Positions 17,391-32,000 of a stretch of DNA of 32,000 nucleotides are shown here, one piece after another. This stretch comes from an uncultured Alphaproteobacteria bacterium. GTDB lineage: Bacteria; Pseudomonadota; Alphaproteobacteria; Rs-D84; CACZYB01. Location: positions 120,001-152,000 of the forward strand of contig CAKQHZ010000002.1 in the NCBI GenBank assembly GCA_934246625.1, in the 5' to 3' direction. The number at the start of each line of letters is the position of its first letter. Positions within the stretch are counted from its first letter, which is position 1. A program made the translations under genes and the position numbers. The notes under the pieces were generated by a model that saw only the letters and a list, made by a program, of their open reading frames with translations, made no database searches and was not told the DNA's origin.

Positions 17391-17678
17391 ATGAACGGAG
17401 GAATTGATTTATCCTGGTGGATAAGTGTTGTTGAAATACCCGTGTTCTTAGGTTTGTTTTGGATTATCCGAAATAATATGAGTTATTTGGAAAATTCGTT
17501 GAAACAACAAGAAGAAAAATCAAAACGAGAAATTGTTTCAATGATTGAAAATATTGCGTCTTTTCGTGTTGATGTGGCAATGAACTATGCCTCTATGTCT
17601 TATTTAAAAGACGTGGAAAATCGATTGACGGCTCATCTTCTTCGTATTGAAGAAAAAATTTCATCAGGAGGGTTTTGA
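17391..17678 (+). CDS. Small phage-type membrane protein (holin-like candidate)
   Basis: The 95-aa product has one N-terminal TM helix (WWISVVEIPVFLGLFWII) and then a coiled-coil-like tail. Its stop overlaps the start of the hydrolase gene (ATGA). Confidence 0.4.
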   Translation: MNGGIDLSWWISVVEIPVFLGLFWIIRNNMSYLENSLKQQEEKSKREIVSMIENIASFRVDVAMNYASMSYLKDVENRLTAHLLRIEEKISSGGF

Positions 17679-18124
17679 TGGCTTTTATAGAAAACAGAAA
17701 TAATCAAATTCGCAAAATGAAACTTGATAATAATTTTAATAAATTAGTTTTTGCAAAAACAATTTTTAAAGTTGTTGGCGAAAATCAAAATATTGAATTG
17801 TTAAAAGCTGTTGCAAATGTTGTGATGAACAGATTTTTATATGAATATGAAATTGATGATGAAATGACTTTTGTAAAATGTATTACAAATGTAGATTTGT
17901 TTCCATGTTGGAAAAATCTTAAATCAATGGATGAAATTGATTTGCAAAATTGCTTTTTTAAAAAATGTTTTTCTTTGGCTTTAAAAATGTTGAATGGAAA
18001 AGTGGAAGATAATACTTTGTCTTCTATTAAATTTAAAAAAGTTTCTGAGTGTCCTGTATGGGCTGTGGGTTTAAAATATGTTAAGGCGATAGATGATTAT
18101 CTTTTTTACAATAATTGTGATTAA
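17675..18124 (+). CDS. SleB-like cell-wall hydrolase (candidate endolysin)
   Basis: The pattern FAKTIFKVVGENQNIELLKAVANVVMNRF resembles the Hydrolase_2/SleB N-terminal motif (LA..iygEa....g..aVa.VvlNR). Its position is coupled to the holin-like ORF. Confidence 0.45.
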   Translation: MMAFIENRNNQIRKMKLDNNFNKLVFAKTIFKVVGENQNIELLKAVANVVMNRFLYEYEIDDEMTFVKCITNVDLFPCWKNLKSMDEIDLQNCFFKKCFSLALKMLNGKVEDNTLSSIKFKKVSECPVWAVGLKYVKAIDDYLFYNNCD

Positions 18125-18145
18125 CAATAAGCAAAGGAGTTTATT

Positions 18146-18880
18146 ATGACAGAGTTAAAAAATGATGAATTAAAAAAATCTGTGGAAAAAAAGGAAGAAA
18201 AAATTTCAAAATTAAAACCTGAAAATGTTCCTGTGAAATTTTGGAATGATGCAAATGGTGAAATTCGTGTTGATGAACTTTTGAAATCATATTTGGAATT
18301 GGAAAAAAAGTTTAGTGAAGTTTCAAAAAATAAAAATGATAAAAATATTTTGGAACTTGCTCTTGAAACAGATGTGCCTGCTGGTGAATATCAAATTGAA
18401 CTTCATCATAAACTTTTGACGATTGATGATAATGTTAATAAACGTTTGAAAGATGCAGGTTTTACAAATAAGCAAGCTCAACTTGTTTATGATTTGGGTG
18501 CTGAAATTATGATGCCTTTGATTGAGGAAATCAGCGGAGAATTTCGTATGTATCGAGAATTAGAAAAACTTGAAAAATACTTTGGTGGAGAAGAACGTTT
18601 TGATGAAATTTCACGACAAATTTCAAAGTGGGCAGAAAAAAATATTCCATCAGAAATTTATAATTCTCTTAACAAATCTTATTATGGTGTGATTGCTTTG
18701 TTTAATATGATGAATGGTGGTAATGAACCATCAATGATAAATATGGTTGGCGAAAAAGAAAATATTTTAAATGAAAAAAAATTAAAAGATATGATGAACG
18801 ATCCTCGTTATTGGAGAGATGGTGATAAAGATTTTATAAAAAAAGTTGATGATGGATTTAAAAATTTATATGACAGATAA
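18146..18880 (+). CDS. Capsid scaffolding-like protein (T7 gp9 position)
   Basis: The product is acidic and helical. Its N-terminus (PENVPVKFWNDANGEIRVDELLKSYLELEKKF) is typical of podovirus scaffold/assembly proteins. It lies upstream of the capsid gene. Confidence 0.45.
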   Translation: MTELKNDELKKSVEKKEEKISKLKPENVPVKFWNDANGEIRVDELLKSYLELEKKFSEVSKNKNDKNILELALETDVPAGEYQIELHHKLLTIDDNVNKRLKDAGFTNKQAQLVYDLGAEIMMPLIEEISGEFRMYRELEKLEKYFGGEERFDEISRQISKWAEKNIPSEIYNSLNKSYYGVIALFNMMNGGNEPSMINMVGEKENILNEKKLKDMMNDPRYWRDGDKDFIKKVDDGFKNLYDR

Positions 18881-18912
18881 TTACTTTTTTGTATTTTTTT
18901 TGATAATTTTTA

Positions 18913-18941
18913 TTGCAGTGTAATTTTGATTATGTTATACT
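18913..18941 (+). promoter_or_regulatory. Sigma70-type promoter of the Lys-rich / membrane gene cassette
   Basis: TTGCAG (18913-18918), a 17-nt spacer, then TATACT (18936-18941). Confidence 0.45.
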
Positions 18942-18974
18942 AAACTTGTCTTTTGTTAAATAGGAGAGAGAAAT

Positions 18975-19316
18975 ATGTTTAAAAGTATAATTAAAAAAGC
19001 TAAATCTACTGCTAAAAAAGTTGAAACAAAAAAGGCAGAAGTTAAAAAGGCACCTGCAAAAAAAGTTGCAGTAAAAAAAGTAGCTGAAAAGAAAGCTCCA
19101 GCTAAGAAAGTAGTTGCTAAAAAGGCACCTGCAAAAAAAGTTGCAGTAAAAAAAGTGGCTGTGAAAAAAGCTCCTGCTAAAAAAGTAGTTGCTAAAAAAG
19201 CACCTGCAAAAAAAGTAGTTGTAAAAAAAATCGTAGTTAAAAAAGCATCTGTTAAAACTACTTCTGTAAAAAAAACAGTTAAACCAGTTGCAAAAAAAAA
19301 AGTAGCAAAGAAGTAG
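18975..19316 (+). CDS. Lys/Ala/Val-rich histone-H1-like basic protein
   Basis: The 113-aa product is almost entirely KKAPAKKVAVKKVA-type repeats. This composition is typical of H1-like/AlgP-like DNA-binding tails. A GGAGAGAG ribosome-binding site precedes the ATG. Confidence 0.6.
   Translation: MFKSIIKKAKSTAKKVETKKAEVKKAPAKKVAVKKVAEKKAPAKKVVAKKAPAKKVAVKKVAVKKAPAKKVVAKKAPAKKVVVKKIVVKKASVKTTSVKKTVKPVAKKKVAKK
19047..19229 (+). repeat. 75-bp (25-codon) tandem repeat, about 2.4 copies, inside the Lys-rich gene
   Basis: Copy 1 is 19047-19121 and copy 2 is 19122-19196, differing at a few positions. A partial third copy runs from 19197. Confidence 0.85.
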
Positions 19317-19330
19317 TTGTTGATATTTCT

Positions 19331-19891
19331 TTGGTAAAATCAAATCCCAATAAAAAGGGTGATGAGGTAGTTCAAAAGAAAACTTCATTACTTTCTTCTT
19401 TGTTGGGATTTTTTTATACGAAAACAAAAAAAATACTTAGTGTTTATTTGTCTTTGGTTGTAATTTTTTCTTTTGCATTTGCATTTTACAAAGAACTTAA
19501 GGTTTATAGTTTAGTTCGTTTTGCAATGAACCCATTGGAAATTATGTTTATAAGTGTTGTTGGTGCAGTATTCTTGATTATTAAATTATTTATACCTGTT
19601 TTAATTGTTGTGGTTATTGCAAAATTATTTATGTTAAAGTCAAGAAAAATAAAGGTTCAACCAAAATTTAAAAAAAGTTTTAAAAGACAAACTTTGATTG
19701 CATTTGTGGTTTCATTTATTTTTGCAACTTTGTTTTATTATGATGTTGTTTTGGTTGCAAAATTTTCTCCACAACTTGTAAAATCTTCTGTTGAATTATT
19801 TGTGTTATTTTTTATATCTGTTTTATTTACTTTGTCTTCTATGTATGGTGTTATCAAAGGAGTTGCACCAGTTTTGGAAGAAAAAAAATAA
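19331..19891 (+). CDS. Polytopic membrane protein; start uncertain, possibly expressed as a -1 frameshift fusion with the upstream Lys-rich ORF
   Basis: It has four to five hydrophobic helices. The only upstream start is a TTG with no Shine-Dalgarno sequence. The first in-frame ATG would delete two helices. This frame is open back into the A10 tract at 19292-19301. Confidence 0.5.
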   Translation: MVKSNPNKKGDEVVQKKTSLLSSLLGFFYTKTKKILSVYLSLVVIFSFAFAFYKELKVYSLVRFAMNPLEIMFISVVGAVFLIIKLFIPVLIVVVIAKLFMLKSRKIKVQPKFKKSFKRQTLIAFVVSFIFATLFYYDVVLVAKFSPQLVKSSVELFVLFFISVLFTLSSMYGVIKGVAPVLEEKK

Positions 19892-19928
19892 TTCGATATA
19901 CTTTTTAATTATACTTTGTAAAGTTTAA

Positions 19929-19955
19929 AATCCGTCAGTTTTTGGCGGATTTTTA
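19929..19955 (+). terminator. Intrinsic terminator after the membrane-protein gene
   Basis: The stem AATCCGTC / GGCGGATT (8 bp including one G-U pair) has a 7-nt loop and is followed by a T-run. Confidence 0.5.
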
Positions 19956-20011
19956 ATTTTGCAAATAATACTTGCAAAAATTGGGATAACATTTTTTTGC
20001 CCCATTTTACC

Positions 20012-20036
20012 GACCCTTTTATGGGTCTTTTTTTTA
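20012..20036 (+). terminator. Terminator-like hairpin in the capsid-gene leader
   Basis: The stem GACCC / GGGTC has a 6-nt loop and is followed by a T9 run. AAGGAG and ATG 20059 follow. Confidence 0.5.
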
Positions 20037-20058
20037 ACAATAAAAAAGGAGATAAAAT

Positions 20059-20895
20059 ATGTCAATTTCTATTGATCAATCTTTTATAAAACAGTTTGAA
20101 GCAGAAGTTCATCTTGCTTTTCAACAAATGGGAACAAAACTTCGTTCTACTGTAAGAACAAAAAATGATGTAAAGGGAAGTTCAACAACTTTTCAAAAAG
20201 TAGGTAAGGGAACTGCAACTACAAAGGCAAGACACGGACTTGTTCCTGTGATGAATTTGGACCATACTCCTGTTGAATGTGTGCTTTCTGATTTCTATGC
20301 TGGTGATTGGATTGATGAGCTTGATGAAATCAAAACAAATGTTGATGAACGTCGTGTTGTTGCAAGTGCTGGTGCCTATGCTTTGGGTCGCAAAAGTGAT
20401 GAACTTATTATTTCAGAACTTAATCAAGCAAATGTGTCTGTTGCAATGGGTGATACTGGTTTAACAAAGGCAAAAATTCTTTCTGCTTTGGAATTACTTA
20501 ACAATAGCGATGTGCCAGATGATGGTCAAAGATTTGCAGTTGTTGGTGTGCATCAATGGAATGAACTTTTGAATATGAAAGAATTTTCTTCTGCGGAATA
20601 TGTTGGTGATACTTATCCTTTACTTAAGGGAACAGAAACAAGAAAATGGCTTGGCATAAATTGGATTATGCATAATGCTTTGCCATTTGATGAAAAAACA
20701 AAAGCAAGAAATTGCTTTATATATCACAAAAATTCTGTGGGTCATGCATCTGGTTGTGATGTGAAAACTGATATTACATGGCATGGTGAAAGGGCTGCGC
20801 ACTTTATTTCAAATTGTATGAGCCAAGGTGCAAAACTTATTGATAACACAGGTGTTGTGAAAATTATTTGTAAAGATACTTCTGTAATTGCTTAA
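20059..20895 (+). CDS. Major capsid protein (T7 gp10-like pattern)
   Basis: The pattern matches remembered T7 gp10A. The N-terminal FIKQFEAEVHLAFQQ...STTFQKVGKG resembles FLKVFGGEVLTAFAR...SAQFPVLGR. The central AGAYALGRKSDELIISEL and C-terminal YHKNSVGHA resemble MHRSAVGTV. It follows the scaffold-like gene. Confidence 0.75.
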   Translation: MSISIDQSFIKQFEAEVHLAFQQMGTKLRSTVRTKNDVKGSSTTFQKVGKGTATTKARHGLVPVMNLDHTPVECVLSDFYAGDWIDELDEIKTNVDERRVVASAGAYALGRKSDELIISELNQANVSVAMGDTGLTKAKILSALELLNNSDVPDDGQRFAVVGVHQWNELLNMKEFSSAEYVGDTYPLLKGTETRKWLGINWIMHNALPFDEKTKARNCFIYHKNSVGHASGCDVKTDITWHGERAAHFISNCMSQGAKLIDNTGVVKIICKDTSVIA

Positions 20896-20916
20896 CTTTA
20901 ACAAAAGGAAATAAAA

Positions 20917-21165
20917 ATGGCTATTGATTCAAAAAATTTATCTGTACTTGCTTACTCAAATGGATTTACTTTGTGGCATTATAAAACAACCGATACAAAA
21001 ACTGTTGTTGAAACATCAGGTTATTTTGATAAGGTTGCGAATATTTTTAACGAAGGCGATATGATTTTTACATCTGTGCTTGGTGGTGATACAAAGCAAA
21101 CAATTATTTATATTGTAAGTTCTGTTGAAAATGGTGTGGTTAGTGTTTCTAACTTACTTGCTTAA
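20917..21165 (+). CDS. Small protein downstream of the capsid gene (possible head accessory / decoration protein)
   Basis: The 82-aa ORF has a good ribosome-binding site (AAGGAA). The assignment rests on position only. Confidence 0.3.
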   Translation: MAIDSKNLSVLAYSNGFTLWHYKTTDTKTVVETSGYFDKVANIFNEGDMIFTSVLGGDTKQTIIYIVSSVENGVVSVSNLLA

Positions 21166-21177
21166 TTTAGTGTGATA

Positions 21178-21203
21178 AATCCCCAGTTTTGGGGATTTTT
21201 TTT
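21178..21203 (+). terminator. Strong intrinsic terminator after the capsid block (positionally analogous to T7 T-phi)
   Basis: The stem AATCCCC / GGGGATT has a 6-nt loop and is followed by a T8 run. The run ends directly at the AAGGAG of the next gene. Confidence 0.7.
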
Positions 21204-21215
21204 AAGGAGAAATTT

Positions 21216-21773
21216 ATGAATAATTTTACAATGATTGATTTGTGTTCAAAGGCTTTGCATAAAATTGGAGCAAATGAAATTGTTTCGTTTGATGAAAATA
21301 CTCCTGAAGCAGAATTAAGTAAAAGTATTTATCCTGTTTTAAAAAGGAAATTGCTTTCATCTTTTGTATGGAGTTTTGCAACAAAAGTTTTAAAACTTTC
21401 ATTGATAGAAGATGAAAATCAAACAGAGTTTCAATATTGTTTTTTGCTTCCATCTGATTTTATAAGAGCGATTAAAATATCACCAAAAGTTCCATATAAA
21501 ATTATTGAAAATAAATTGGTTGCGAATGTGTCTGATATAGTATTGACGTATGTTTCTGATGTTGATGAGGAAAATTTTTCACCTGCATTTTTAAATGCGT
21601 TTATTTATATTTTGTCCGCAGAATTATCTCTTTCTTTGTTGGACGATGTAGCAAAATTTAATTTGTTTTATCGACTTTATAATTCAGAATTAAGAGAGGC
21701 AAGATTTTTGGATAGTGCACAAGAAACGGCAAAACATTTTGATAATTTTTCTTTAATTGATGTAAGGTATTAG
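21216..21773 (+). CDS. Tail tubular protein A / adaptor (T7 gp11-like)
   Basis: I place the start at ATG 21216 after AAGGAG; the track start 21189 lies inside the terminator. The N-terminus IDLCSKALHKIGANEIVSFDENTPEAELSKSIY...FVWSFA parallels T7 gp11 [31 protein letters not shown]...GWTFN. Its size is also similar to that of gp11. Confidence 0.6.
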   Translation: MNNFTMIDLCSKALHKIGANEIVSFDENTPEAELSKSIYPVLKRKLLSSFVWSFATKVLKLSLIEDENQTEFQYCFLLPSDFIRAIKISPKVPYKIIENKLVANVSDIVLTYVSDVDEENFSPAFLNAFIYILSAELSLSLLDDVAKFNLFYRLYNSELREARFLDSAQETAKHFDNFSLIDVRY

Positions 21774-21781
21774 GTGTTGGT

Positions 21782-23686
21782 ATGTATAAACAAATTATTT
21801 CAAATACAAATTTTGCGTTTGGTGAAATTTCTCCTTATCTTTTTGGAAGGGGAGATATTGAGGCATATAAAAATGGTGCTATGACTATGTCAAATATGAC
21901 AGTTATTCCCACAGGTGGAGTTAAGCGTCGAGCAGGATTAAAGTTTTTGTGTGATTTGCCAAATGCTGGAAAATTGATAAATTTTGATTACTCTTCTTTG
22001 GAAAATTTTTTACTTTATTTCAGTGAAAATATTTTGTGGATTTATAATAGCATTGGTGAAAAGGTTGCAAGTCTTATGACTCCATTTTCCATTGCTCAAT
22101 TATCAAATATACGATGGTCGCAAAAGGGAAATCAATTATATATTGTGCATAAAGATGTTGCACCAAAAGTTTTGAAATATTATCCTCTTGAAGATAATTG
22201 GATTTTGGAAGATTGGCAATATGCGGTAAGTGATAAAAACTTTTCTTGTGAACCATTTGCAAAGTTTGAAGACACAGAAAATATTATGATTACTCCGTCT
22301 GGAAAAACTGGTGAAATTTCATTGGTTTCATCACAAAGTTTGTTTGATAATTCGTTTTTGGGTATTAAACTTCTTATTGATGGAGGTGAAGTTTGTATTA
22401 CTCAAATAATTTCTGGAACAGAGGCAAAGGCTGTTGTAAAAGCAGAATTGAGTGCTTTGGTTGCAACTTCTTCTTGGCAAGAACAGGCATTTTCGCTTAA
22501 GCGTGGTTTCCCAAAAAGTATTGCATTTCATCAAAACAGATTGGTGATTGGTGGGTCAAAAAGTTTGGCGAATAGATTGTGGTTTTCAAAAACAGGAGAA
22601 TATTTTAATTTTGATTTGGGTGAAGGTCTTGATGACGAAGCGATTGAGTTTGATTTATTGTCAGACAGAGTTAATGAAATTTTGTGTGTTTTTTCAGGAA
22701 AGCATTTACAAATTTTTACATCAGATTCTGAATGGATGGTGTCTGGGTATCCATTGACACCAACTTCATTGACGGTAAAGCAACAAACCAAAATTGGTTC
22801 TGTGGCAGATAAATTTATTTCACCAAAACTTGTTGAAGGTTCAACTATATTTGTTGCAAAAAACAACAAAGAAATTCGAGAATTTTTTTATGGAGATATT
22901 TCTGAAAATTATTCGTCCGAAGATTTAATTTTGCTTTCAAATCATTTAATGAATAAACCAAAAGAATTGGATTACGATATTAAAAACCGAATGCTTTATG
23001 TTTTGCAAAGTGATGGGACTATATCAATATTGCTTACAAATAAAACCAATGCTATAAATGCGTGGTTTAAGTATGAAACTCAAGGTGAATTTATTTCGCT
23101 TAATGTGTTTAATAATACTTTATATGTTATTGTTAAACGAGATGATAAGTATTTTTTAGAGTATTTGTCCGATGATGTGATGACAGATTCTTCTTTGACT
23201 TTTTCTTTTGATACAAAGGTTGATAAGATTGTTGGAATTTCACATTTGAACAATAAAATTGTTAGTGTTAATGCGGATAATTATGTTTTTGATGTAAAGG
23301 TTGAAAATAATGAACTTATACTTCCTTTGTCAGCAAAAAATGTTTTTTTGGGATTAAGTTATACACATACTTTGTGTCCGTTGCCAGTGTTAATAAATGG
23401 GGTTGTCCCACCAAAAATTGTGCGACTTTTTGAGTTGACTTTTCGTGTGGTTGATACTCCTTTATTACAAATTGATACTGGTGATGGAATAAGAAATATT
23501 ACTTGTATGGATTTTGATAAGGATAATATCCTTGATAATTCGTTGGTGCCATTTAATGGTGATATTCATATCAAAGCAAAAGGTTTGATTAAAAATTTTG
23601 AAGTCCCATTATGGAAGGTGCAAAGTTCAAAACCTTATAATGTAAAAATTTTAAATATTTCTGCAAAAATTGGTAGTGTAAAATAG
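21782..23686 (+). CDS. Tail tubular protein B / nozzle (T7 gp12-like)
   Basis: The N-terminus FAFGEISPYLFGRGD resembles gp12 LKGGISQQPDILRYPD. FHQNRLVIGGSKSLANRLWFSKTGEYFNFD resembles gp12 FFRNRLGFLSGENIILSRTAKYFNFY. It follows the gp11-like gene. Confidence 0.7.
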   Translation: MYKQIISNTNFAFGEISPYLFGRGDIEAYKNGAMTMSNMTVIPTGGVKRRAGLKFLCDLPNAGKLINFDYSSLENFLLYFSENILWIYNSIGEKVASLMTPFSIAQLSNIRWSQKGNQLYIVHKDVAPKVLKYYPLEDNWILEDWQYAVSDKNFSCEPFAKFEDTENIMITPSGKTGEISLVSSQSLFDNSFLGIKLLIDGGEVCITQIISGTEAKAVVKAELSALVATSSWQEQAFSLKRGFPKSIAFHQNRLVIGGSKSLANRLWFSKTGEYFNFDLGEGLDDEAIEFDLLSDRVNEILCVFSGKHLQIFTSDSEWMVSGYPLTPTSLTVKQQTKIGSVADKFISPKLVEGSTIFVAKNNKEIREFFYGDISENYSSEDLILLSNHLMNKPKELDYDIKNRMLYVLQSDGTISILLTNKTNAINAWFKYETQGEFISLNVFNNTLYVIVKRDDKYFLEYLSDDVMTDSSLTFSFDTKVDKIVGISHLNNKIVSVNADNYVFDVKVENNELILPLSAKNVFLGLSYTHTLCPLPVLINGVVPPKIVRLFELTFRVVDTPLLQIDTGDGIRNITCMDFDKDNILDNSLVPFNGDIHIKAKGLIKNFEVPLWKVQSSKPYNVKILNISAKIGSVK

Positions 23687-23707
23687 GTTAAATGAAAGGA
23701 TAATAAT

Positions 23708-24154
23708 ATGGGAGCAAGTGCTGGTGTTGCCGCAGTTCTTACTGCTGCGGATAGTATTATTGATTATAGAGAAAAAAAGAAGCAACAAAAGGCAAATGAA
23801 AAATTATTAAATCAACAACAGGAAGTCAAGGAAGAAGAAAATGAAATAAAAAAACAAATTTTAAAAGATGAAAAGACAAATTTGCTTAAAACAAAATTGG
23901 CTTCGCAAAAGGCAAAGTTAGGTGCAAGTGGACTTGTGTCAACAACTGGGTCTTCGGCTGCTTATCTTTCAAGTTTGGAAAAGGATACAGATGAGGAAAT
24001 TTTGAAAAAAACTTCGCTTAGTGATTTGAATTTATTAAATGAAACGGCAAATTATGATTACAGAAAAAAGCTAAATTTATTAGATCAAGCAAAGAATGAT
24101 TATGATTTTTCAAAAGGCTTGGTTAATAACATTTTTTCAAAAAAATTATTTTAG
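23708..24154 (+). CDS. Coiled-coil protein with hydrophobic N-terminus (possible small internal virion protein)
   Basis: It lies between the gp12-like and gp17-like genes, where T7 encodes its internal proteins. At 148 aa it is Lys/Glu-rich. No motif was found. Confidence 0.3.
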   Translation: MGASAGVAAVLTAADSIIDYREKKKQQKANEKLLNQQQEVKEEENEIKKQILKDEKTNLLKTKLASQKAKLGASGLVSTTGSSAAYLSSLEKDTDEEILKKTSLSDLNLLNETANYDYRKKLNLLDQAKNDYDFSKGLVNNIFSKKLF

Positions 24155-24166
24155 GAGAGTTATGTT

Positions 24167-24889
24167 ATGGGTAAAAATAGTTTAGTAAAACATATATATA
24201 TTTGTGATGGTGTGCAAAAAAATTTTGACTATCAATTTGAAAGTTTTTCAAAAACAAGTATAAAAGTTTTTATTGATAACTTGATGATAAAATCTGGGTA
24301 TGAGATAGTTCCATTTTCTGACAAGGTTGGTGGAAAAATTATTTTTAATACTCCTCCTTTGAAAGGGAAAGTTTTATCGATTATTCGTGAGTTAGATTTT
24401 TCACGAAGTTGTGATTTTCAAACAGGTGGAATTTTTCGTGCTGAAGATTTGAACTATGAACTTAACTATAATATTGCTTGTCTTAATCAAGTCAATGATG
24501 TTTTAACTTTGGCAGTTAAACTTTCACCACTTGATACAAAAATAAATCCAGTATTGCCAAAGGCAAAAGCAGGCTATGCAATTGTTTGGAATGATACAGA
24601 AGATGGATTTTCAAATTTAGATGTTAATATTACAGAGCAAGTTCGTTATGTTGAAGATTGCACAAATCTTGTTGAAAATCTTTATAATGATTTAAGTGAT
24701 TTATTTGCAAGCAATTCTGATATAGGAGTATTGGGGTTTGTGAATAATTTGCTTACGATTTTAAAAGAACATCATGGTGAAGCGTTTGTTGATTTTCAAA
24801 ATCTTAATTGTGTAGCAAATGATGTTATTGATTTTGGAAATGTGTCTGATGAATCACAAATTAGTGTGAAAGATAATGGAATACTTTGA
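24167..24889 (+). CDS. Tail fibre protein with T7 gp17-type N-terminal tail-attachment domain
   Basis: HIYICDGVQKNFDYQFE...IKVFIDN...IIRELDFSRSCDFQTGGIFRAEDLNYELN parallels gp17 LTYQLDGSNRDFNIPFEY...VVVTLIG...RVTSTTDRLVDFTDGSILRAYDLNVAQ. Confidence 0.7.
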   Translation: MGKNSLVKHIYICDGVQKNFDYQFESFSKTSIKVFIDNLMIKSGYEIVPFSDKVGGKIIFNTPPLKGKVLSIIRELDFSRSCDFQTGGIFRAEDLNYELNYNIACLNQVNDVLTLAVKLSPLDTKINPVLPKAKAGYAIVWNDTEDGFSNLDVNITEQVRYVEDCTNLVENLYNDLSDLFASNSDIGVLGFVNNLLTILKEHHGEAFVDFQNLNCVANDVIDFGNVSDESQISVKDNGIL

Positions 24890-25484
24890 TAAAAAAATCA
24901 GTTTTTTGGATTTTTTGAAAGATTGGTATAAAACTCAGGGACTTTTGTTTCCAGAACATCATAAAAAAATTGCAAAATGGTTGGAGAGTGTTTATTTTTC
25001 TGATAAAAAGCGAGGGCTTTTGCTTGCTTTTCGAAGTAGTGGAAAGTCAACGGTGGTTGGGCTTTTTTGTTCGTGGCTTTTGTATATAAATCCGAATTTA
25101 AGGATTTTGGTTGTTGCAGCAGATACTATGTTGGCAAAAAAGATGGTGCGAAATATCAAATATATTGTTGAACTTCACCCATTATTGGAAAGTATTAGAC
25201 CAAAGAAAAAGCAAGAATGGGCATCTGGAAGTTTTACCGTGGAAAGAAATTTGGTGTTAAGGGACCCATCTGTGATGGCTGTGGGACTTTTATCAAATTC
25301 GACTGGAAGCAGGGCTGATGTTATTATTTGTGATGATGTGGAGGTGCCAAAAAATTGTGATACTTATCAAAAACGGTGTGATTTGAGAGAGAAATTGTTG
25401 GAGTTTAATTTTATTTTGGTGCCTAATGGTATGCAAATTTTTATTGGGACACCGCATACTTTGGATACTATTTATAAAGTTTAG
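24876..25484 (+). CDS. Large terminase, N-terminal ATPase half only
   Basis: It has Walker A (AFRSSGKST), Walker B (ADVIICDDVE) and the coupling motif (FIGTPHT). The ORF stops 8 codons after the GTP motif. It overlaps the fibre gene by 14 nt. Confidence 0.75.
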   Translation: MEYFDKKISFLDFLKDWYKTQGLLFPEHHKKIAKWLESVYFSDKKRGLLLAFRSSGKSTVVGLFCSWLLYINPNLRILVVAADTMLAKKMVRNIKYIVELHPLLESIRPKKKQEWASGSFTVERNLVLRDPSVMAVGLLSNSTGSRADVIICDDVEVPKNCDTYQKRCDLREKLLEFNFILVPNGMQIFIGTPHTLDTIYKV

Positions 25485-25545
25485 TATTGATTTTAGGGGA
25501 ATTTTTTAGTTGTTTTATACAAAAAAATATTTTTTTAAAATTTTA

Positions 25546-25573
25546 TTGACAAATTCGAATTAGTTTGTATAAT
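25546..25573 (+). promoter_or_regulatory. Near-consensus sigma70 promoter of sRNA candidate 1
   Basis: TTGACA (25546-25551), a 16-nt spacer, then TATAAT (25568-25573). Confidence 0.6.
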
Positions 25574-25579
25574 GAGGTT

Positions 25580-25710
25580 GTTTCGTTAATAAGAAAAAAG
25601 AATTTGCCGAGACGACCCCTCATTTCGGCAGATCTGGTGAAAGCCAGTAATAATCCCCTAAGTCATTCCCTCCTTATTTTCTCTCTCCTCGACTTGGGGG
25701 ATATTTTTTT
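25580..25710 (+). ncRNA. sRNA candidate 1: about 130 nt, three hairpins, with a terminator hairpin carrying a 26-nt CU-rich (anti-Shine-Dalgarno-like) loop
   Basis: A consensus promoter lies upstream. Hairpins are GCCGA...TCGGC and CTGG tgaaag CCAG. The third stem is TCCCCTAAGTC (25654-25664) / GACTTGGGGGA (25691-25701) around the loop ATTCCCTCCTTATTTTCTCTCTCCTC, followed by a T-run. Confidence 0.5.
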
Positions 25711-25792
25711 GTCGGGACGCCCGAGTAATCTCACAAAGGCAAACTAGAATTTTCTACTAACCCCGTAGAAAATTAAGTTTTTGTTTGTTCGG

Positions 25793-25825
25793 TTTCTCTC
25801 TCCTCGACTTGGGGGATATTTTTTT
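25793..25825 (+). ncRNA. Second copy of the 33-nt CU-rich / GGGGGA / T-run 3' module (3' end of sRNA candidate 2)
   Basis: TTTCTCTCTCCTCGACTTGGGGGATATTTTTTT is identical at 25678-25710 and 25793-25825. A 10-bp hairpin (AATTTTCTAC / GTAGAAAATT) precedes it. Confidence 0.4.
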
Positions 25826-26220
25826 AGTTCAGAAAAGTTAGGATTTGTGAGCTTTTGTTGTGTTTTTGAGGGAAAATAGTCAAATTTGTAAAAAATGTGT
25901 GAAAAATTAGAATTTTCTGTTGAAATTTTGGTTTTAAATTGCTAAAAAAGAATCAGTTTTTGAAAAGATTCTCGAATCGATAGTAAAATTTAAAAAAAAG
26001 AATCGATTCTTGGTGGTTTTTTAAGGTTTTATTTTATAGACAATTTGAAATTGCAAAAAGAATCTTTTAATTTTTAATATGTTGTTTTTACAGCATTCTT
26101 TTTTGTTTTTTGATGGCTAATAAGTTGCCAAAAAAAGAATCTCTTGACTTTTTTTGTCGATTGCTTTAAGAATCGTTGTATGAGGCGAGTGGAAATTTTC
26201 CATTTTGTTTCAAACATATT

Positions 26221-26280
26221 CCCTGTTGCGTTCCTTTTCTCTCCTTTCCTCCTTCTCTCCTCGCAACGGGGGATTTTTTT
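26221..26280 (+). ncRNA. sRNA candidate 3 terminator module with a 31-nt CU-rich loop
   Basis: The stem CCCTGTTGCG (26221-26230) / CGCAACGGG (26262-26270) has one bulge. It encloses TTCCTTTTCTCTCCTTTCCTCCTTCTCTCCT and is followed by GGA and a T7 run. Confidence 0.45.
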
Positions 26281-26554
26281 ATACTTGAGTTTTTTTCTGA
26301 CTGATTCCCTTCGTTAATGTCTCACTTACGATTTGTTAAGATGCTAGTTTTTTGCAGGGTGGCGTGGCAACAAGCTAAGCAAACCTAAAACTTTTCACTA
26401 ATGCCGTTCAAAGTTTAAGGATAGCTATGCTTGGTGTCTCTTCGCAACGGGGGATTTTTTTTATATAATCTCTTCTCAAGATAGTTAAATTTGCATAAAA
26501 TGAAAAAAATAACTTGCGTTTTGGGAAAATATAGGTTATAAACTTGTTATCTTT

Positions 26555-26630
26555 GGCTAGGTAGCTCAGTCGGTAGAGCAAAGGACTGAAAATCCTTGTG
26601 TCGGCAGTTCGATTCTGCCCCTCGCCACCA
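26555..26630 (+). tRNA. tRNA-Phe (anticodon GAA) with encoded CCA
   Basis: A 76-nt cloverleaf was folded by hand. It has D arm GCTC/GAGC, anticodon stem AAGGA/TCCTT with loop CTGAAAA, a 5-nt variable loop, and T arm GGCAG-TTCGATT-CTGCC. The acceptor stem has 6 of 7 pairs (U4-C69 mismatch) and ends ACCA. Confidence 0.85.
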
Positions 26631-26663
26631 TTATTGGTCCCCCGTTTGGGGGATTTTTTATTT

Positions 26664-26969
26664 GTGTCGGCAGTTCGATTGTCCTCGTGATTGAAAATCA
26701 CTCGTTCGTCCCGTAAGCCTAAAACTTCGCCAAAGGCTCGTGTTTAGGCAACTATCGACTCCTGCCCCTCGCCACCACTATTGGTCCCTCATTTGGGGGA
26801 TTTTTTATTTGTGTCGGCAGTTCGATTGTCCTCGTGATTGAAAATCACTCGTTCGTCCCGTAAGCCTAAAACTTCGCCAAAGGCTCGTGTTTAGGCAACT
26901 ATCGACTCCTGCCCCTCGCCACCATTATTGGTCCCCCGCTTGGGGGATTTTTTATTTGTGTCGGCAGTT
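26664..26969 (+). repeat. 147-bp tandem repeat (2 full copies plus a 12-nt stub) made of the tRNA-Phe 3' part interrupted in the T-loop by an 81-bp insert, plus a terminator hairpin
   Basis: GTGTCGGCAGTTCGATT recurs at 26598 (in the tRNA), 26664, 26811 and 26958. Each full unit is this 17-mer, an 81-nt insert, CTGCCCCTCGCCACCA, and CCCCCgtttGGGGG with a T-run. A degenerate older unit lies at about 26290-26470. Confidence 0.9.
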
Positions 26970-27038
26970 TATTGACTTTTAAACCTTCGTTAAATGAGTT
27001 TGATGTCATATAGTTTCTTTGCAAAGTAAGGCAAAACC

Positions 27039-27047
27039 TGTGGATAA
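27039..27047. promoter_or_regulatory. Perfect DnaA-box 9-mer upstream of ftsZ
   Basis: TGTGGATAA is the reverse complement of the consensus TTATCCACA. It lies 91 nt upstream of the ftsZ ATG. It is a single site, so a chance occurrence cannot be excluded. Confidence 0.35.
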
Positions 27048-27079
27048 AAGTTTTTTTTCTTAATTTTTGTTTTCTTTTC

Positions 27080-27108
27080 TTAACATTTGGCTTTTTTTAT
27101 GCTATAGT
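27080..27108 (+). promoter_or_regulatory. Candidate ftsZ promoter
   Basis: TTAACA (27080-27085), a 17-nt spacer, then TATAGT (27103-27108). Confidence 0.35.
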
Positions 27109-27137
27109 TTATTTGAGAAAAAATTAAGGAGAGAGAT

Positions 27138-28820
27138 ATGATAGGAGAAGGAAACTTCGGCTATAATTCACAAAATGATGATGAAATTCAAAATTTTATT
27201 CCACGAATCACTGTAATGGGTGTTGGTGGTGCTGGTTGTAATGCTGTTGGCAATATGATTTCTCAAGGTATTGATGGTGTGGATTTTGTTGTGGCAAATA
27301 CTGATGCTCAATCTTTGATGTTGTCAAAGGCTCCTCGTAAAATTCAACTTGGAAAACAAACTACTCGTGGATTTGGTGCTGGCTCAAAACCAGAAGTTGG
27401 TAAAACTGCGGCTGAAGAATCTTTGAATGAAATTGCAGATGTCGTTAAAAATGCAAATATTCTTTTCTTGACTGGTGGTATGGGTGGTGGAACTGGAAGT
27501 GGTGCTATACCTGTGATTGCATCTGTGGCAAAGGAAAAGGGAATTTTGACTATTGCAATTATTACAACTCCTTTTGATTTTGAAGGTGAAAAGAAAAAAC
27601 GTATTGCAGAGGAGGCAATAGCTGAATTACTTCCTAATGTGGATTGTGTTATTACTTTGCCAAATCAAAATTTGTTCAAGGTTGCGGATAAACAAATGTC
27701 ATTTATCAATGCCTTTAAACTTTCTGATAATGTCCTTTATGAAGGTGTTAGAAATATTACAGATTTGATTATGAAACCTGGTTTGATTAACCTTGATTTC
27801 GCAGATATAAGAACTGTGATGGAAGGTCAGGGAAAAACCATTATTGGAACAAGTGTTCAAAGTGGTGAAGATAGGGCATTGAAAGCAGTGAAGGGTGCTT
27901 TGCTTAATCCTCTTCTTTCTAATGAAAGTATTAGTGGGGCAAAGGGTATTTTGGTAAATATTACTGGTAATGCTGATAATCTTTCTTTGGAAGAAGTTAA
28001 TGATATTATGAATACAATTCGTGCCGATATAAATTCAAATGATGTTAATTTCGGCTTTGGAACTTGCTTTGACCCATCTATGGGTGATAGCTTGAAAGTT
28101 GCTATTATTGCAACTGGTATTAACGGTGATAATGTTAAAACAGATGTAAATACAACAAAAACAGAAGTTAATAATACTTCTTATAATTCATTTAATAATG
28201 TTGCAACTTCTAAACCTTACTCATTTACAAATATTGAAGAAAAAAAAGAAGAAGTTCGTGTTGAGCCAAAACCAATGGAAAAGCCTATGCCTAGTTTTAT
28301 GGAAGAAACAGTTGTAAGTGATAATAAACTTGATAATTTCTTTAAAACCGGTGATGAAAAGGATATTCAAGCCTTTATTGATGAGGAAGCAGAAAAACTT
28401 AATGTCGCAAGTTCTGTTTCAAATGAACTTTTTTCTGATGAAAAAAATAGTATTTTAGATAGTAATGAAGATACTTCTTCTTTGGATAATGTATCTTTGA
28501 ATGGCAATGGTGATGATGACCATGATCCTGAACCACCAAAGGGAAAAAAGAAAAATCCTTTGTCTTCTTTCTTTGATATGATTGGTGAAAAGGATAGTGA
28601 TGATACTTTTTTTGATGATGTGGAAAAAGATGATAATGGTGATGTAAAATTTGAAAATCAATCTGAAATATCAGATAAAAAAGAAGATGATAATGTCGTT
28701 TTCTTGGCTGGAAATTTGGATACAAAGGACCCAGATGATAAGCAAATTGATTTGATGGAAATGATAAAGAAAATGGAAGAAACTTTGGAAATTCCTGCGA
28801 TATTTAAAAAAGGTTCATAA
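27138..28820 (+). CDS. ftsZ: Cell-division protein FtsZ with a long acidic C-terminal linker
   Basis: It has GVGGAGCNAV and the tubulin signature GGMGGGTGSGA. An Asp/Glu/Asn-rich linker of about 230 aa follows. The conserved C-terminal peptide is LEIPAIFKK. Confidence 0.95.
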   Translation: MIGEGNFGYNSQNDDEIQNFIPRITVMGVGGAGCNAVGNMISQGIDGVDFVVANTDAQSLMLSKAPRKIQLGKQTTRGFGAGSKPEVGKTAAEESLNEIADVVKNANILFLTGGMGGGTGSGAIPVIASVAKEKGILTIAIITTPFDFEGEKKKRIAEEAIAELLPNVDCVITLPNQNLFKVADKQMSFINAFKLSDNVLYEGVRNITDLIMKPGLINLDFADIRTVMEGQGKTIIGTSVQSGEDRALKAVKGALLNPLLSNESISGAKGILVNITGNADNLSLEEVNDIMNTIRADINSNDVNFGFGTCFDPSMGDSLKVAIIATGINGDNVKTDVNTTKTEVNNTSYNSFNNVATSKPYSFTNIEEKKEEVRVEPKPMEKPMPSFMEETVVSDNKLDNFFKTGDEKDIQAFIDEEAEKLNVASSVSNELFSDEKNSILDSNEDTSSLDNVSLNGNGDDDHDPEPPKGKKKNPLSSFFDMIGEKDSDDTFFDDVEKDDNGDVKFENQSEISDKKEDDNVVFLAGNLDTKDPDDKQIDLMEMIKKMEETLEIPAIFKKGS

Positions 28821-28840
28821 AAATAATTTTTTAAACTTTG

Positions 28841-28875
28841 TCCCCCTTTGATTTTTTTCAAAGGGGGATTTTTTT
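28841..28875 (+). terminator. Strong intrinsic terminator after ftsZ, 9 nt before the portal-gene Shine-Dalgarno sequence
   Basis: A perfect 11-bp stem (TCCCCCTTTGA 28841-28851 / TCAAAGGGGGA 28858-28868) has a 6-nt loop and a T7 run. AAGGAG lies at 28885-28890. Confidence 0.8.
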
Positions 28876-28895
28876 AACTTAAATAAGGAGTTAAT

Positions 28896-30392
28896 ATGAT
28901 TGAAAAGGAAATTTTTGATAAAAATTTTGTTGATGATGTCTATAACAGATATTTGAATGCAATAGAGAAAAGGTCAGTGTGGGAAAGTTATTGGGAAGAA
29001 TGTTATGAATATGCTTTGCCACAAAAAAGTGGAACTTTTAATGGTGAAAATTTTTCTAATGTAAAGAAAAATACAAATGTTTTTGATTCCACTGCGGAAT
29101 CTGCAGTTGACAGACTTGCAAGTAGTCTTCTTTCCCAACTTACTCCACCATGGTCAAAATGGTTTGGGTTGGAATTTGGTATTGATATAGCTGATGATGA
29201 TAAAAAGGAAAAGTATCTTCAACTTGAAAATATTGAAAAGATTTTGCAATCTCATTTGGATAGGTCAAATTTTTATGTGGAAGCTCATCAATGCTATTTG
29301 GATTTAATTACGGTTGGAACTGCGGTTATGTTATTTGAAGAAAATGCAGTAGGTGAAAATTCCGCATTTAAGTTTACTTCTGTGCCAATGAATGAAGTTG
29401 CGTTTGAAGAAAATACGAATGGAAAGTTGGATACTGTATTTCGTCGTTCTTATGTCTCACTTGCAAATTTAAAAATAAGGTTTGCCAATGTTATTTTTGA
29501 TGAAAAACAACAGGAAATTATTTCCAAAAACCTTGATAAAAAAGTGTATGTGATAGAGGCTGTGTTGCCACGAATAACTTCTTCTGGACAACAGGGATAT
29601 AATTATATTGCGTTTATTGATGATGTAGAAAATATTTTTAATAGCTCTGTTAAAATAATTCTTAAAACAGGAGTATTTGCAAATTCTCCGTTTATTTGTT
29701 TCAGATGGCAAAAGGTTAGTTCTGAAATTTATGGAAGGTCTCCTGTGATGAAGGCTTTGCCAGATATTAAAACCGCAAATAAAGTTGTGGAACTTATTCT
29801 TAAAAATGCGTCTATTGCAGTAAGTGGTATTTGGCAAGCAGATGATGATGGCGTTTTGAATCCGCAAAATATAACTCTTGCTCCAGGAACAATTATTCCA
29901 AAGGCAGTTGGTTCTAGTGGGCTTACTCCACTTAGAAGTGGTGCCGATTTTGATGTTTCTCAGTTGGTATTGTCTGATTTGCGTGCAAAGATAAATCATT
30001 GTTTACTTGTGGATCAATTAGATGTGTCAAATAATTTTAAAATGACTGCAACAGAAGTGATGGAAAGAATAAATCAAATATCTCGTGTGTTGGGGGCAAC
30101 CTATGGCAGACTTCAATCTGAATTTTTGACACCTGTGGTTATTCGTGCAATTTCTATTTTAAAAAGACGTGGTGAAATTTCAGATATACTTGTTAATGGA
30201 TATGAAGTTGATTTGAAATATCAATCTCCACTTGCTCAAAATCAAATTGTTCGTGATGCAGAAAATATTTTGAATTGGATAAAAACTTTGTCAGAAGTGT
30301 GTGGTGATGCAACAAGTGTTATTGATAAAAAAGCGGTTGCGTTATATTTGGGAAAAGTTTTTGGTATTTCAGAACGATTGATTTGTGCATAG
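28896..30392 (+). CDS. Portal / head-to-tail connector protein (T7 gp8-like)
   Basis: VDDVYNRYLNAIEKRSVWESYWEECYEYALP parallels gp8 AKSVYERLKNDRAPYETRAQNCAQYTIP. YGRSPVMKALPDIKTANKV parallels YGRSYIEEYLGDLRSLENL. MTATEVMERINQISRVLGATYGRLQSEFLTPVV parallels VTAEEIRYVASELEDTLGGVYSILSQELQLPLV. Confidence 0.8.
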   Translation: MIEKEIFDKNFVDDVYNRYLNAIEKRSVWESYWEECYEYALPQKSGTFNGENFSNVKKNTNVFDSTAESAVDRLASSLLSQLTPPWSKWFGLEFGIDIADDDKKEKYLQLENIEKILQSHLDRSNFYVEAHQCYLDLITVGTAVMLFEENAVGENSAFKFTSVPMNEVAFEENTNGKLDTVFRRSYVSLANLKIRFANVIFDEKQQEIISKNLDKKVYVIEAVLPRITSSGQQGYNYIAFIDDVENIFNSSVKIILKTGVFANSPFICFRWQKVSSEIYGRSPVMKALPDIKTANKVVELILKNASIAVSGIWQADDDGVLNPQNITLAPGTIIPKAVGSSGLTPLRSGADFDVSQLVLSDLRAKINHCLLVDQLDVSNNFKMTATEVMERINQISRVLGATYGRLQSEFLTPVVIRAISILKRRGEISDILVNGYEVDLKYQSPLAQNQIVRDAENILNWIKTLSEVCGDATSVIDKKAVALYLGKVFGISERLICA

Positions 30393-30402
30393 TGAGGATA
30401 TT

Positions 30403-31281
30403 ATGGAGGAAGATTTTAGCTTGCCTTTTTTGGCTGGGTTTGATGTCCTTAAAATTCCAGTTATTGAAAATGGGATTCCTGTATGGCCTGAAAAATTCCC
30501 GATTGAAAAAATTGAGGAATTAAAGGTTCGGGTTGGAATGACAAAATTTTCTTCGCAAATGCTACTTAATCCTGTGCAATTAAATAAAGGGCGATTTGAT
30601 ATAAACAAGTTAAAATTTTATAATTCTGATTTGTGTGTAGAGGAACATAATCACCTTTTGACCTTTACAATAAATGGTAAAAAAGTTGTCAGTTGTTCGT
30701 GTTGGTGGGATCCTTCGTATGGTTCAATCGGTGGTGATGGAAGTGTTATATCTGTTGTCTTTATTGATGTGGAAGGGCATTACTATCTTCATGACATAAA
30801 ATATCTTTATCATTCGGATAAGAAAAAGGAAGAAATTCAATCGGCATTGGAACAATGTCAGCAGGTTGGTGAGTTTGTTAAGGCAAACTATATACCTTCG
30901 GTTTATGTTGAAACGAATGGTATTGGTAAATTTTTACCAGAGTTTTTAAGAAATGAGTTTTTGAAAATGGGAATTTCCGCTGGGGTTGTTGAAAAGGTTT
31001 CTAGGGTTTCAAAAAATCTTAGGATTTTAGATGCTTTTGATGTGATTACTTCGGCAGGATATTTATATGTTAATGAAAAGGTGAAAAATACCCCTTGGGT
31101 TGCGGAATTTTGTGATTGGGGTGTTGATTCAAAAGCTCATGATGATGGACTTGATAGTGTGGCTGGTGCAATTTCGTCTGTGCCAGCCAAGTTGCCTATT
31201 TCTGTGTTGGCAAAACAAAGAAAAGTAAGTTTTGCAGGGAAAACGTATAGGGTAAAGACAAATTTTGATATAGACTTTTGA
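30403..31281 (+). CDS. Large terminase, C-terminal half (ATPase lid region plus RNase-H-like nuclease domain)
   Basis: It has its own GAGGA ribosome-binding site and ATG 30403; the track start is GTG 30385. It has WPEKFPIEKIEELKVRVGMTKFSSQMLLNP and nuclease motifs WWDPSYGSIGGDGSVISVVF, VYVETNGIG and AHDDGLDSVAGA. It continues where ORF 24876-25484 stops. Confidence 0.75.
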   Translation: MEEDFSLPFLAGFDVLKIPVIENGIPVWPEKFPIEKIEELKVRVGMTKFSSQMLLNPVQLNKGRFDINKLKFYNSDLCVEEHNHLLTFTINGKKVVSCSCWWDPSYGSIGGDGSVISVVFIDVEGHYYLHDIKYLYHSDKKKEEIQSALEQCQQVGEFVKANYIPSVYVETNGIGKFLPEFLRNEFLKMGISAGVVEKVSRVSKNLRILDAFDVITSAGYLYVNEKVKNTPWVAEFCDWGVDSKAHDDGLDSVAGAISSVPAKLPISVLAKQRKVSFAGKTYRVKTNFDIDF

Positions 31282-31300
31282 TTTTTTAGACAAATTATTA

Positions 31301-31329
31301 TTGACAAATAATGTTTTTAAGTTTATATT
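31301..31329 (+). promoter_or_regulatory. Sigma70-type promoter
   Basis: TTGACA (31301-31306), a 17-nt spacer, then TATATT (31324-31329). Confidence 0.5.
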
Positions 31330-31358
31330 TAAGCTATATTTAATAAAGAGGTCAAAAT

Positions 31359-32000
31359 ATGGATATAAAGAAAAAAAGATATTATATTGTTTTTACTGGA
31401 TTATTTCTTATAATTCTAGGTATGCTTATTTATGCTTTGCGACCTGTGAAAAAAGTTAAAAAAGAATCTAATGTGTTGACAAAAGTGTCGGCAGTAAAGA
31501 CTGTAAAGGTAGTAAAGGCTGAAAAAGCAAAGGGATTGCCTCTTAATTTTGTTTATGATGTGCCAAGTGATTATAAAAGAACTATACCTCATTATGTTGG
31601 TATGAAACGACATATTGAAGATATGGATAATATGCAAATTGTTTGTAATGGTAAAAATTGTAAAAGACAGGTTCTTACAACTTCAAAGGTAAAAGTTTAT
31701 CATACCAAAAAAGCAAAGAAAACTTTGAGTGTTGTAAATGGAAATGTTGTTTTTTCAAAAAATAATTTAAAATATCTTAAAAGTGATGTGAAAATTATTG
31801 GTGATTTGTATATTAAGGATATAAATTTCCTTAAAATTCCTGATAATTTTATTGTGCTTGGTAATATTTACCTTATCAATTCAGAAGGTTTGACTTTTAT
31901 GGGTAAAACATATATTGATGGTCATATTTTTGTTAAGGGTAAAAGTAGTGTTAGGGCTTTGCCTTATAATGTGAAATTAACAGGACAGATTTTTATTTAA
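31359..32000 (+). CDS. Membrane-anchored hypothetical protein
   Basis: It has an N-terminal TM helix (YYIVFTGLFLIILGMLIYAL). The C-terminal region has a repetitive beta-rich look (GDLYIKDINFLKIPDNFIVLGNIYLINSEGLTFMGKTYIDGHIFVKG). The stop codon falls at the window end. No family was recognised. Confidence 0.45.
   Translation: MDIKKKRYYIVFTGLFLIILGMLIYALRPVKKVKKESNVLTKVSAVKTVKVVKAEKAKGLPLNFVYDVPSDYKRTIPHYVGMKRHIEDMDNMQIVCNGKNCKRQVLTTSKVKVYHTKKAKKTLSVVNGNVVFSKNNLKYLKSDVKIIGDLYIKDINFLKIPDNFIVLGNIYLINSEGLTFMGKTYIDGHIFVKGKSSVRALPYNVKLTGQIFI

Follow-up and report, generated by a model that had tools for sequence, protein, structure and literature searches.

A small structured module in tandem tRNA-Phe tail copies ahead of ftsZ looks like an undescribed insertion element

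The window analyzed here is a 32,000-nucleotide stretch of DNA of approximately 31% GC, whose nearest genomes are those of uncultured gut Alphaproteobacteria. Ahead of ftsZ, it contains a tRNA-Phe gene followed by tandem partial copies of the 3' part of that gene, and the T-loop of these copies is occupied by the same 81-nt insert, hereafter module M (Table 1). Matches to T7-like tail, portal, and terminase proteins suggested that the window might derive from a free phage genome. We rejected this origin, as the first 17 kb encode bacterial genes (a two-partner secretion pair, GlmS, MltA, TraT, and AccB/AccC) and the relatives are alphaproteobacterial MAGs. Moreover, a 99%-identical FtsZ, cluster-mates of AccC at 90% identity or above, and the capsid protein of the window are each found on a 714,895-bp contig, apparently the same one. 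Together, these three observations indicate that the window is chromosomal. The T7-like head and tail gene set itself (17675-32000; cell-wall hydrolase, scaffold, capsid, nozzle, tail-fibre N domain, portal, and terminase) is also present in contigs L016-L021, L023, and L030. Its large terminase comes in two pieces, an N part at 24876-25484 (profile positions 1-189 of 500) and a C part at 30385-31281 (profile positions 232-500), and ftsZ and the portal gene lie between them. Relatives whose FtsZ identity falls as low as 51% retain this gene order, with capsid proteins that are 77-86% identical. No polymerase or integrase was seen with the set, which looks like a long-domesticated, phage-derived particle resembling a gene-transfer agent.

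Table 1. Features of the tRNA-Phe locus and its tandem array, in window coordinates
Feature	Coordinates	Strand	Basis
Promoter-like site, TTGCGT-17 nt-TATAAA, ending 12 nt 5' of the tRNA	26514-26542	+	sequence reading
tRNA-Phe(GAA) with encoded CCA	26555-26630	+	ARAGORN, Rfam
Intrinsic-terminator-like hairpin and T-run directly 3' of the tRNA	26636-26661	+	terminator scan
Unit 1, 147 bp	26663-26809	+	sequence reading, TRF, terminator scan
Unit 1: variable loop, T-stem 5' strand, T-loop	26664-26680	+	
Module M copy 1, 81 nt	26681-26761	+	exact duplicate; covariance model
Unit 1: T-stem 3' strand, acceptor 3' strand, ACCA	26762-26777	+	
Unit 1: terminator	26783-26808	+	
Unit 2, 147 bp, built as unit 1	26810-26956	+	TRF
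Module M copy 2, identical to copy 1	26828-26908	+	exact duplicate; covariance model
Truncated trailing core GTGTCGGCAGTT, end of the array	26958-26969	+	sequence reading

ARAGORN and Rfam (RF00005, 68 bits) agreed on a single tRNA-Phe gene. The T-arm of this gene, GGCAG-TTCGATT-CTGCC, is the 'empty' form of the site that M occupies downstream. The promoter-like site ahead of the gene scored under the threshold of the promoter scan; an equivalent layout, TTGCCT-17-TATAAA, lies upstream of the tRNA in L036, L017, and L018, and from its sequence and position the site in the window is probably the tRNA-Phe promoter. Downstream of the gene, TRF found a 147-bp period with 2.4 copies and 96% matches (26615-26969). 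Each unit reads TGTGTC GGCAG TTCGATT, the 81-nt insert, CTGCC CCTCGCC ACCA, a trailer, and a terminator, so ordered that M follows T-loop position 60 (TTCGATT) and precedes C61 of the T-stem. The 3' end of the insert is ATCGACTC, and its two copies are exact, with none expected in shuffles. The repeated segment reaches approximately 35 nt beyond the tRNA end, into the tRNA terminator, and the tRNA tail and both unit tails each have a terminator-like hairpin with a T-run (26636-26655, 26783-26802, and 26930-26949). Units 1 and 2 differ at four trailer positions.

This anatomy bears out most of an original prediction made from the letters of the window, which had described a tRNA-Phe followed by 147-bp tandem repeats of its 3' part, the same T-loop insert in the repeat units, and a terminator in every unit. 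The prediction had also placed a 17-mer spanning the variable loop through the T-loop at four sites. This 17-mer is exact at 26598, 26664, and 26811; at 26958, just the 12 nt listed in Table 1 are present and are followed by TATTGAC. In strain L014 the trailing core extends to TTCGATTG. A diverged older unit, which had been proposed at 26290-26470, did not hold up: local alignment to the unit recovered only the terminator tail GGGGGATTTTTT, and the covariance model of the module found no further copy in the window.

The 147-bp units begin at the variable loop and have no acceptor 5' strand, D arm, or anticodon arm, and hence no complete cloverleaf that could make them functional tRNA genes. 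Consistent with this, neither ARAGORN nor Rfam called a tRNA in them, and the Rfam search matched the tRNA-Phe and nothing else in the units. No tmRNA, including two-piece permuted forms, was found in the window by either program, and a tmRNA was accordingly ruled out as an identity for the insert. The lengths of the insert (81 nt) and of the unit (147 nt) are both divisible by three, and one reverse-strand frame is open through the entire module. We found no coding signal in the insert or the unit, and the terminators in every unit argue against their translation.

The spacer between the terminase N part and the tRNA-Phe (25485-26550) is itself packed with small units, each ended by a terminator, ahead of which lies a perfect sigma-70-type promoter (25546-25573). 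Spacer and array together contain seven terminator-like hairpins on the + strand (13 overlapping scan calls versus 2 expected). Several of the spacer hairpins have large CU-rich loops, such as TTCCTTTTCTCTCCTTTCCTCCTTCTCTCCT at approximately 26229-26260, which are complementary to strong local Shine-Dalgarno sequences (AAGGAGAGAGA before ftsZ). Because of this complementarity, the spacer units with CU-rich loops may be anti-Shine-Dalgarno small RNAs.

We compared the array among near-identical strains, using contigs from independent human-gut assemblies that encode an identical or 99%-identical FtsZ or terminase N part. Four strains (L001, L010, L011, and L014) have no unit, their locus consisting of the tRNA with its terminator and the trailing core. 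One unit is present in eight strains (L002, L003, L009, L012, L015, L043, L044, and L046), and two units are present in the window and in the cut contigs L004 and L005. Across strains, the trailer variants are reshuffled between the tRNA tail and the unit tails. These copy numbers come from short-read assemblies, and since many contigs end inside the array, the exact number in any single contig is uncertain. The same properties of short-read data are what would favor the reading that the tandem copies are a mis-assembly, a concern that the original prediction had raised. We give this reading almost no credence: independent assemblies from different studies carry the same unit in zero, one, or two copies, trailer variants distinguish the units from one another, and the same architecture recurs in relatives with 75-78% FtsZ identity. 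That near-identical strains have zero, one, or two units therefore indicates that the array is real and recombines between its 66-bp repeats, and its copy-number behavior is as expected from unequal homologous recombination between the 66-bp blocks of the tRNA and unit tails. Moreover, because 4 of approximately 13 contiguous strain alleles lack any unit, M is dispensable. The same spacer has a second presence/absence polymorphism, a 115-nt unit ended by a terminator (25711-25825), which is found in the window, L001, and L003 and is missing from L002.

In related species whose FtsZ is 75-78% identical to that of the window, the tRNA-Phe is kept upstream of ftsZ, and M is found at the same T-loop position. 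A single unit is present in four of them, with one module in L018 and L036 and two tandem modules in the T-loop in L017 and L016 (type A followed by B in L017, B followed by A in L016). The junction between these tandem modules reads TCGACTC|GTCC. No unit was present in L019 (FtsZ 72%) or in L039 (FtsZ 80%), in which the tRNA is inverted. The unit of a given species has the T-stem and terminator of that species' own tRNA, and both differ between species: the window species has a GGCAG/CTGCC T-stem and a CCCCC..GGGGG terminator, and the other species have GGCGG/CCGCC and ACTCYC..GGGAGT. The unit tails and the tRNA tail thus undergo concerted evolution. In L018, the T-loop part of the unit is damaged (TTGATT), showing that the part derived from the tRNA is not conserved as a T-loop in its own right. 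Throughout this low-GC clade, M always lies on the strand of the tRNA and ftsZ, with a terminator after it. The inverted tRNA-Phe of L039 (107-182) has the acceptor 3' strand CTGAGGC in place of CCTCGCC. The 5' strand is unchanged, so the two pair poorly, and this gene may be a rearranged or damaged copy. The spacer from the terminase N part to ftsZ ranges from 70 nt in L021 (5931-6001, with no tRNA) to 4.3 kb in L017 (1698-6001), and it is a hot spot for the gain of non-coding material.

M consists, in order, of GTCCTC, hairpin 1, CTCGTTCGTCCCGTAAG, hairpin 2, and CAACTATCGACTC. A covariance model of the module gave 104.6 bits for copy 1, with a match (26669-26766) that includes flanking T-arm bases. 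The sequence of hairpin 1 is wholly different among variants and is always paired (GTGATT/AATCAC, GCGA/TCGC, or GGGC/GCCC), and the base of hairpin 2 has compensatory substitutions across modules. The structure was taken from single folds and then tested by pair counting. In an alignment of 11 distinct modules, 84.7% of cells pair, versus 70.6% in shuffles; hairpin 1 is 100% paired with two double-change pairs, and P2 is 94.5% paired with three. The covariation score was 0.285, compared with 0.107 in shuffles (0 of 500 reached 0.285) and at most 0.066 when the partners were slid, which we take as support rather than proof given that the 11 modules are a small and related sample. RNAalifold on a MAFFT alignment of the modules gave a weak consensus only. 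In contrast to the variable hairpins, approximately 40 junction positions are the same in modules from genomes of 31% GC and from genomes of 43-49% GC, and the junction blocks TTGTCC, CTCGTTCGTCCCGTAAG, and CAACTATCGACTC are likewise invariant across these dissimilar genomes. In the higher-GC copies, the pairing of hairpin 1 is maintained through G-U wobbles on the + strand. The whole unit folds somewhat better than its shuffles (z = -2.46).

These features bear on a reading that the original prediction had listed as tRNA-derived sRNA genes, according to which the units are genuine sRNA genes and M is a functional three-way-junction RNA closed by the borrowed T-stem. The 3' end and terminator would be borrowed from tRNA-Phe as well, the RNA would be a read-through or processing product of the tRNA-Phe transcript, and tandem copies would set its dosage. 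Such a function would be in keeping with the covarying helices, the unchanged junctions, the wobble-maintained hairpin 1, the energy of the unit fold, and the constant orientation of M ahead of a terminator. The lack of any unit in the four strain alleles and the damaged T-loop part of L018 weigh the other way, as does the region between the tRNA terminator and the unit, where neither sequence reading nor the promoter scan revealed a convincing promoter that would belong to the unit itself. Searches against Rfam 15 likewise returned no family for M, at E values up to 10 for the window and up to 1 for L031, L032, and L034. Overall, we regard the sRNA reading as possible and rather doubtful.

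Several other identities were considered for the insert and rejected. GUGA-UUGAAAA-UCAC in hairpin 1 resembles the Phe anticodon loop, as an anticodon mimic would, and relatives have GCGA-UAAA-UCGC or GGGC-UUU-GCCC at this place. The motif that suggested a permuted or rearranged tRNA within the insert (CUUCGCCA..GGCUCGUG) lacks conservation in type A modules. For HDV-like and other self-cleaving ribozymes, Rfam gave no match, and no P1 partner for GUCCUCG was apparent by eye. BLAST of a higher-GC module against plasmid and phage records returned no match, and BLAST of the intergenic region against phages returned tRNAs only. Searches of IMG/VR with an insert 33-mer, a gapped T-loop pattern, and the terminase N part gave nothing useful, and those with the 17-mer block gave only two chance matches in coding DNA. 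The conserved blocks of M had no match in a full-text literature search, and nothing useful was found in the literature on the gene cluster or on partial-tRNA repeats.

We scanned 241 million metagenome records for two conserved blocks of M, using a 29-base pattern, and found the module at three distinct human-gut loci of 43-49% GC. The neighbors differ by locus: M lies after nagB of a nagA/nagB pair, after tRNA-Cys and tRNA-Asn genes, or near rmlB. Homology among the three loci is confined to approximately 150 nt, and a protein clustering with one from these loci was assigned no finer than Pseudomonadota. At these loci M is not in a tRNA, has no tRNA tail or terminator around it, and fills the loop of a hairpin formed by a different small repeat, GTCA-stem-loop-stem-CTAAAYCAAGCAACAAGAAC. 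This host repeat reads GTCACCCTG AACTCGCTT CTGGGG CTAAAAC where it is empty (L034, 2545-2588) and GTCACCCTG AACTTGTTT [M] CAGGGT CTAAAAC where it is filled (L032); the filled site is the empty site plus M, with zero bases duplicated or lost. The boundaries of the module, GTCC...CGACTC, are the same in these hairpins as in the tRNA T-loop (TTCGATT|M|CTGCC). M always lies directly after TYGNTT, where the loop meets the 3' stem strand, as seen at TTCGATT|, TTGATT|, AACTCGCTT|, and AACTTGTTT|; the tandem junction TCGACTC| fits less well and does not exactly match the TYGNTT spacing. Thus the same module is found in unrelated contexts with empty and filled sites, as for a MITE, whereas two other MITE features, terminal inverted repeats and a target-site duplication, are absent; the ends of M (GTCC... 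and ...GACTC) are not inverted repeats. In L034, truncated and degenerate copies of M lie beside an intact one. These copies and the settings without a tRNA tail or terminator are further points against the sRNA reading. The host repeat belongs to a second small repeat family, GTCA-hairpin-CTAAAYCAAGCAACAAGAAC, in higher-GC gut bacteria (L034, 2545-2588 and 3343-3386; flanks of L031 and L032), which also have further palindromic repeats of the form GTCAT...ATCCAGG; the repeats make up mosaics in intergenic DNA.

With three distinct loci in a scan of this size, M looks low-copy, and the covariance model found no further copies in approximately 235 kb of compared sequence. No transposase for M was seen in the window or at the compared loci. 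Among the open reading frames of the 32-kb window (nearly all of those of at least 80 aa, plus several shorter ones), none matched an integrase, recombinase, or transposase family.

The latter result, together with the site data, bears on another option of the original prediction, stacked att scars. According to this reading, the repeats would be scars of an integrative element that targets the 3' end of tRNA-Phe, and M would be its leftover arm. The direct repetition of the tRNA 3' segment agrees with it, and so does the order of an intact tRNA first and partial copies after, which is the order left when an element with a tRNA-targeting integrase carries a replacement tRNA tail. We nevertheless consider att scars very unlikely, as only the 81-nt M and no cargo lies between the repeats, the repeat runs through the trailer and terminator past the tRNA, no integrase accompanies it, identical and precise boundaries of M recur in non-tRNA hairpins, and the neighboring T7-like gene order is kept in a relative that has no tRNA there (L021). 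The prediction's remaining option, a small mobile insertion that targets the T-loop and was then duplicated, is favored by the shared boundaries in unrelated hairpin loops, the empty site, and the varying unit number. Together, these results suggest that the M family looks like an undescribed small insertion element rather than an integration scar.

We therefore lean, with somewhat more confidence than doubt, toward M being a small, structured, non-autonomous insertion element that resides in a duplicated tRNA-Phe tail and was amplified by unequal crossing-over. Such an element, without inverted ends, would insert into hairpin loops after TYGNTT, exactly where the loop passes into the 3' stem strand, leaving no target duplication. 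At this locus it would have landed in the T-loop of a 3' piece of tRNA-Phe, from the variable loop to the terminator, that had presumably been duplicated beforehand. An M in the tail copy would be harmless because the intact tRNA-Phe gene upstream would secure the tRNA supply. The 66-bp blocks that the tails share (T-stem 3' strand, acceptor strand, CCA, terminator, and core) would then serve as substrates for unequal homologous recombination, which would grow and shrink the array to zero, one, two, or more units and homogenize the unit tails with the tRNA tail of each species. Transcription of the units would probably depend entirely on read-through from the promoter of tRNA-Phe, stopping at each copied terminator. 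By analogy with mini-elements derived from IS200/IS605, M may move as a single strand with the help of an HUH-like transposase. The insertion-element and sRNA readings are not mutually exclusive, since a structured repeat can be transcribed and co-opted.

Several findings run against an insertion element. The junctions of M are invariant at approximately 40 nt across genomes of very different GC while its helices covary, which points to selection acting on either a folded RNA or a recognition structure, because a dead, vertically inherited insertion should have decayed. M looks low-copy, no transposase partner for it was found, and its tandem junction departs from the TYGNTT spacing. In addition, from variant to variant hairpin 1 has an entirely different sequence, unusual for an end recognized by a transposase. 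An improbable but more radical alternative is that M represents a novel class of structured element, of RNA or DNA, with an active core made of its invariant junction bases, and that it finds the hairpin loop to be entered by base pairing. In that class, GUUC and GAC-AAGC of the higher-GC modules would pair with GAAC and GCUU, formed by the target loop plus the first bases of M, and in the tRNA copies the 3' AUCGA would pair with UCGAU of the T-loop. M would then be either a nucleic-acid-guided mobile module specific for hairpin loops or a functional RNA that uses the T-arm as a scaffold.

If M is an insertion element, it would represent an undescribed family of very small elements that enter the hairpin loops of structured-RNA genes, including the T-loop of a tRNA, with single-base precision. 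The locus would be a clear natural example of how a duplicated tRNA tail can turn into a landing pad and later into a recombining array immediately before ftsZ. The covariance model of M would provide a search tool for the family in uncultured gut Alphaproteobacteria, the array a marker locus with strain-level copy-number variation, and the locus as a whole a test case for separating selfish structured repeats from true small RNAs. The finding bears on no long-standing open question.

The array and its module resemble several known systems in part. The partial tRNA 3' copies at the attL and attR sites of islands and prophages are likewise direct repeats beside an intact tRNA; unlike these, the array has no integrase and no cargo, its repeat extends into the terminator, and its 147-bp period is tandem. 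Intervening sequences of 23S rRNA share with M an extra structured sequence that replaces or lengthens a conserved RNA hairpin loop, and a sporadic distribution among relatives. They lie within a functional rRNA and are excised by RNase III, whereas the host of M is a tRNA fragment and there is no long duplex. Stable RNAs cotranscribed with tRNAs, such as the sRNAs of 3' external transcribed spacers and the species 1 and 2 RNAs of phage T4, are non-tRNA RNAs from a tRNA transcription unit. The M units could similarly give rise to such an RNA, ending in a tRNA-like CCA tail; they differ in having no acceptor 5' strand, and M also occurs without a tRNA context.

Mini-elements derived from IS200/IS605 (palindrome-associated transposable elements) are moved as single strands by a Y1 HUH transposase. 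M appears to resemble them in its precise insertion just 3' of a short motif, the lack of target duplication and of inverted ends, a hairpin close to either end, and one specified strand. M differs from them in that no transposase was seen, hairpin 1 is wholly variable, and the guide/target pairing rules of that family could not be demonstrated; the described mini-elements are also longer than M. Rickettsia palindromic elements (RPEs), which have been found fused into tmRNA and RNase P RNA genes (Ogata et al. 2002, reviewed in PMC2229807), offer a further parallel. As that review describes them, they are small (approximately 100 bp), hairpin-forming, non-coding alphaproteobacterial repeats that are nested in structural RNA genes and leave the surrounding helices intact, as M does. 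Compared with that description, M is an 81-nt, apparently low-copy module with no terminal inverted repeats, resides in a partial tRNA copy rather than in a working gene, and is conserved across genomes of very different GC.
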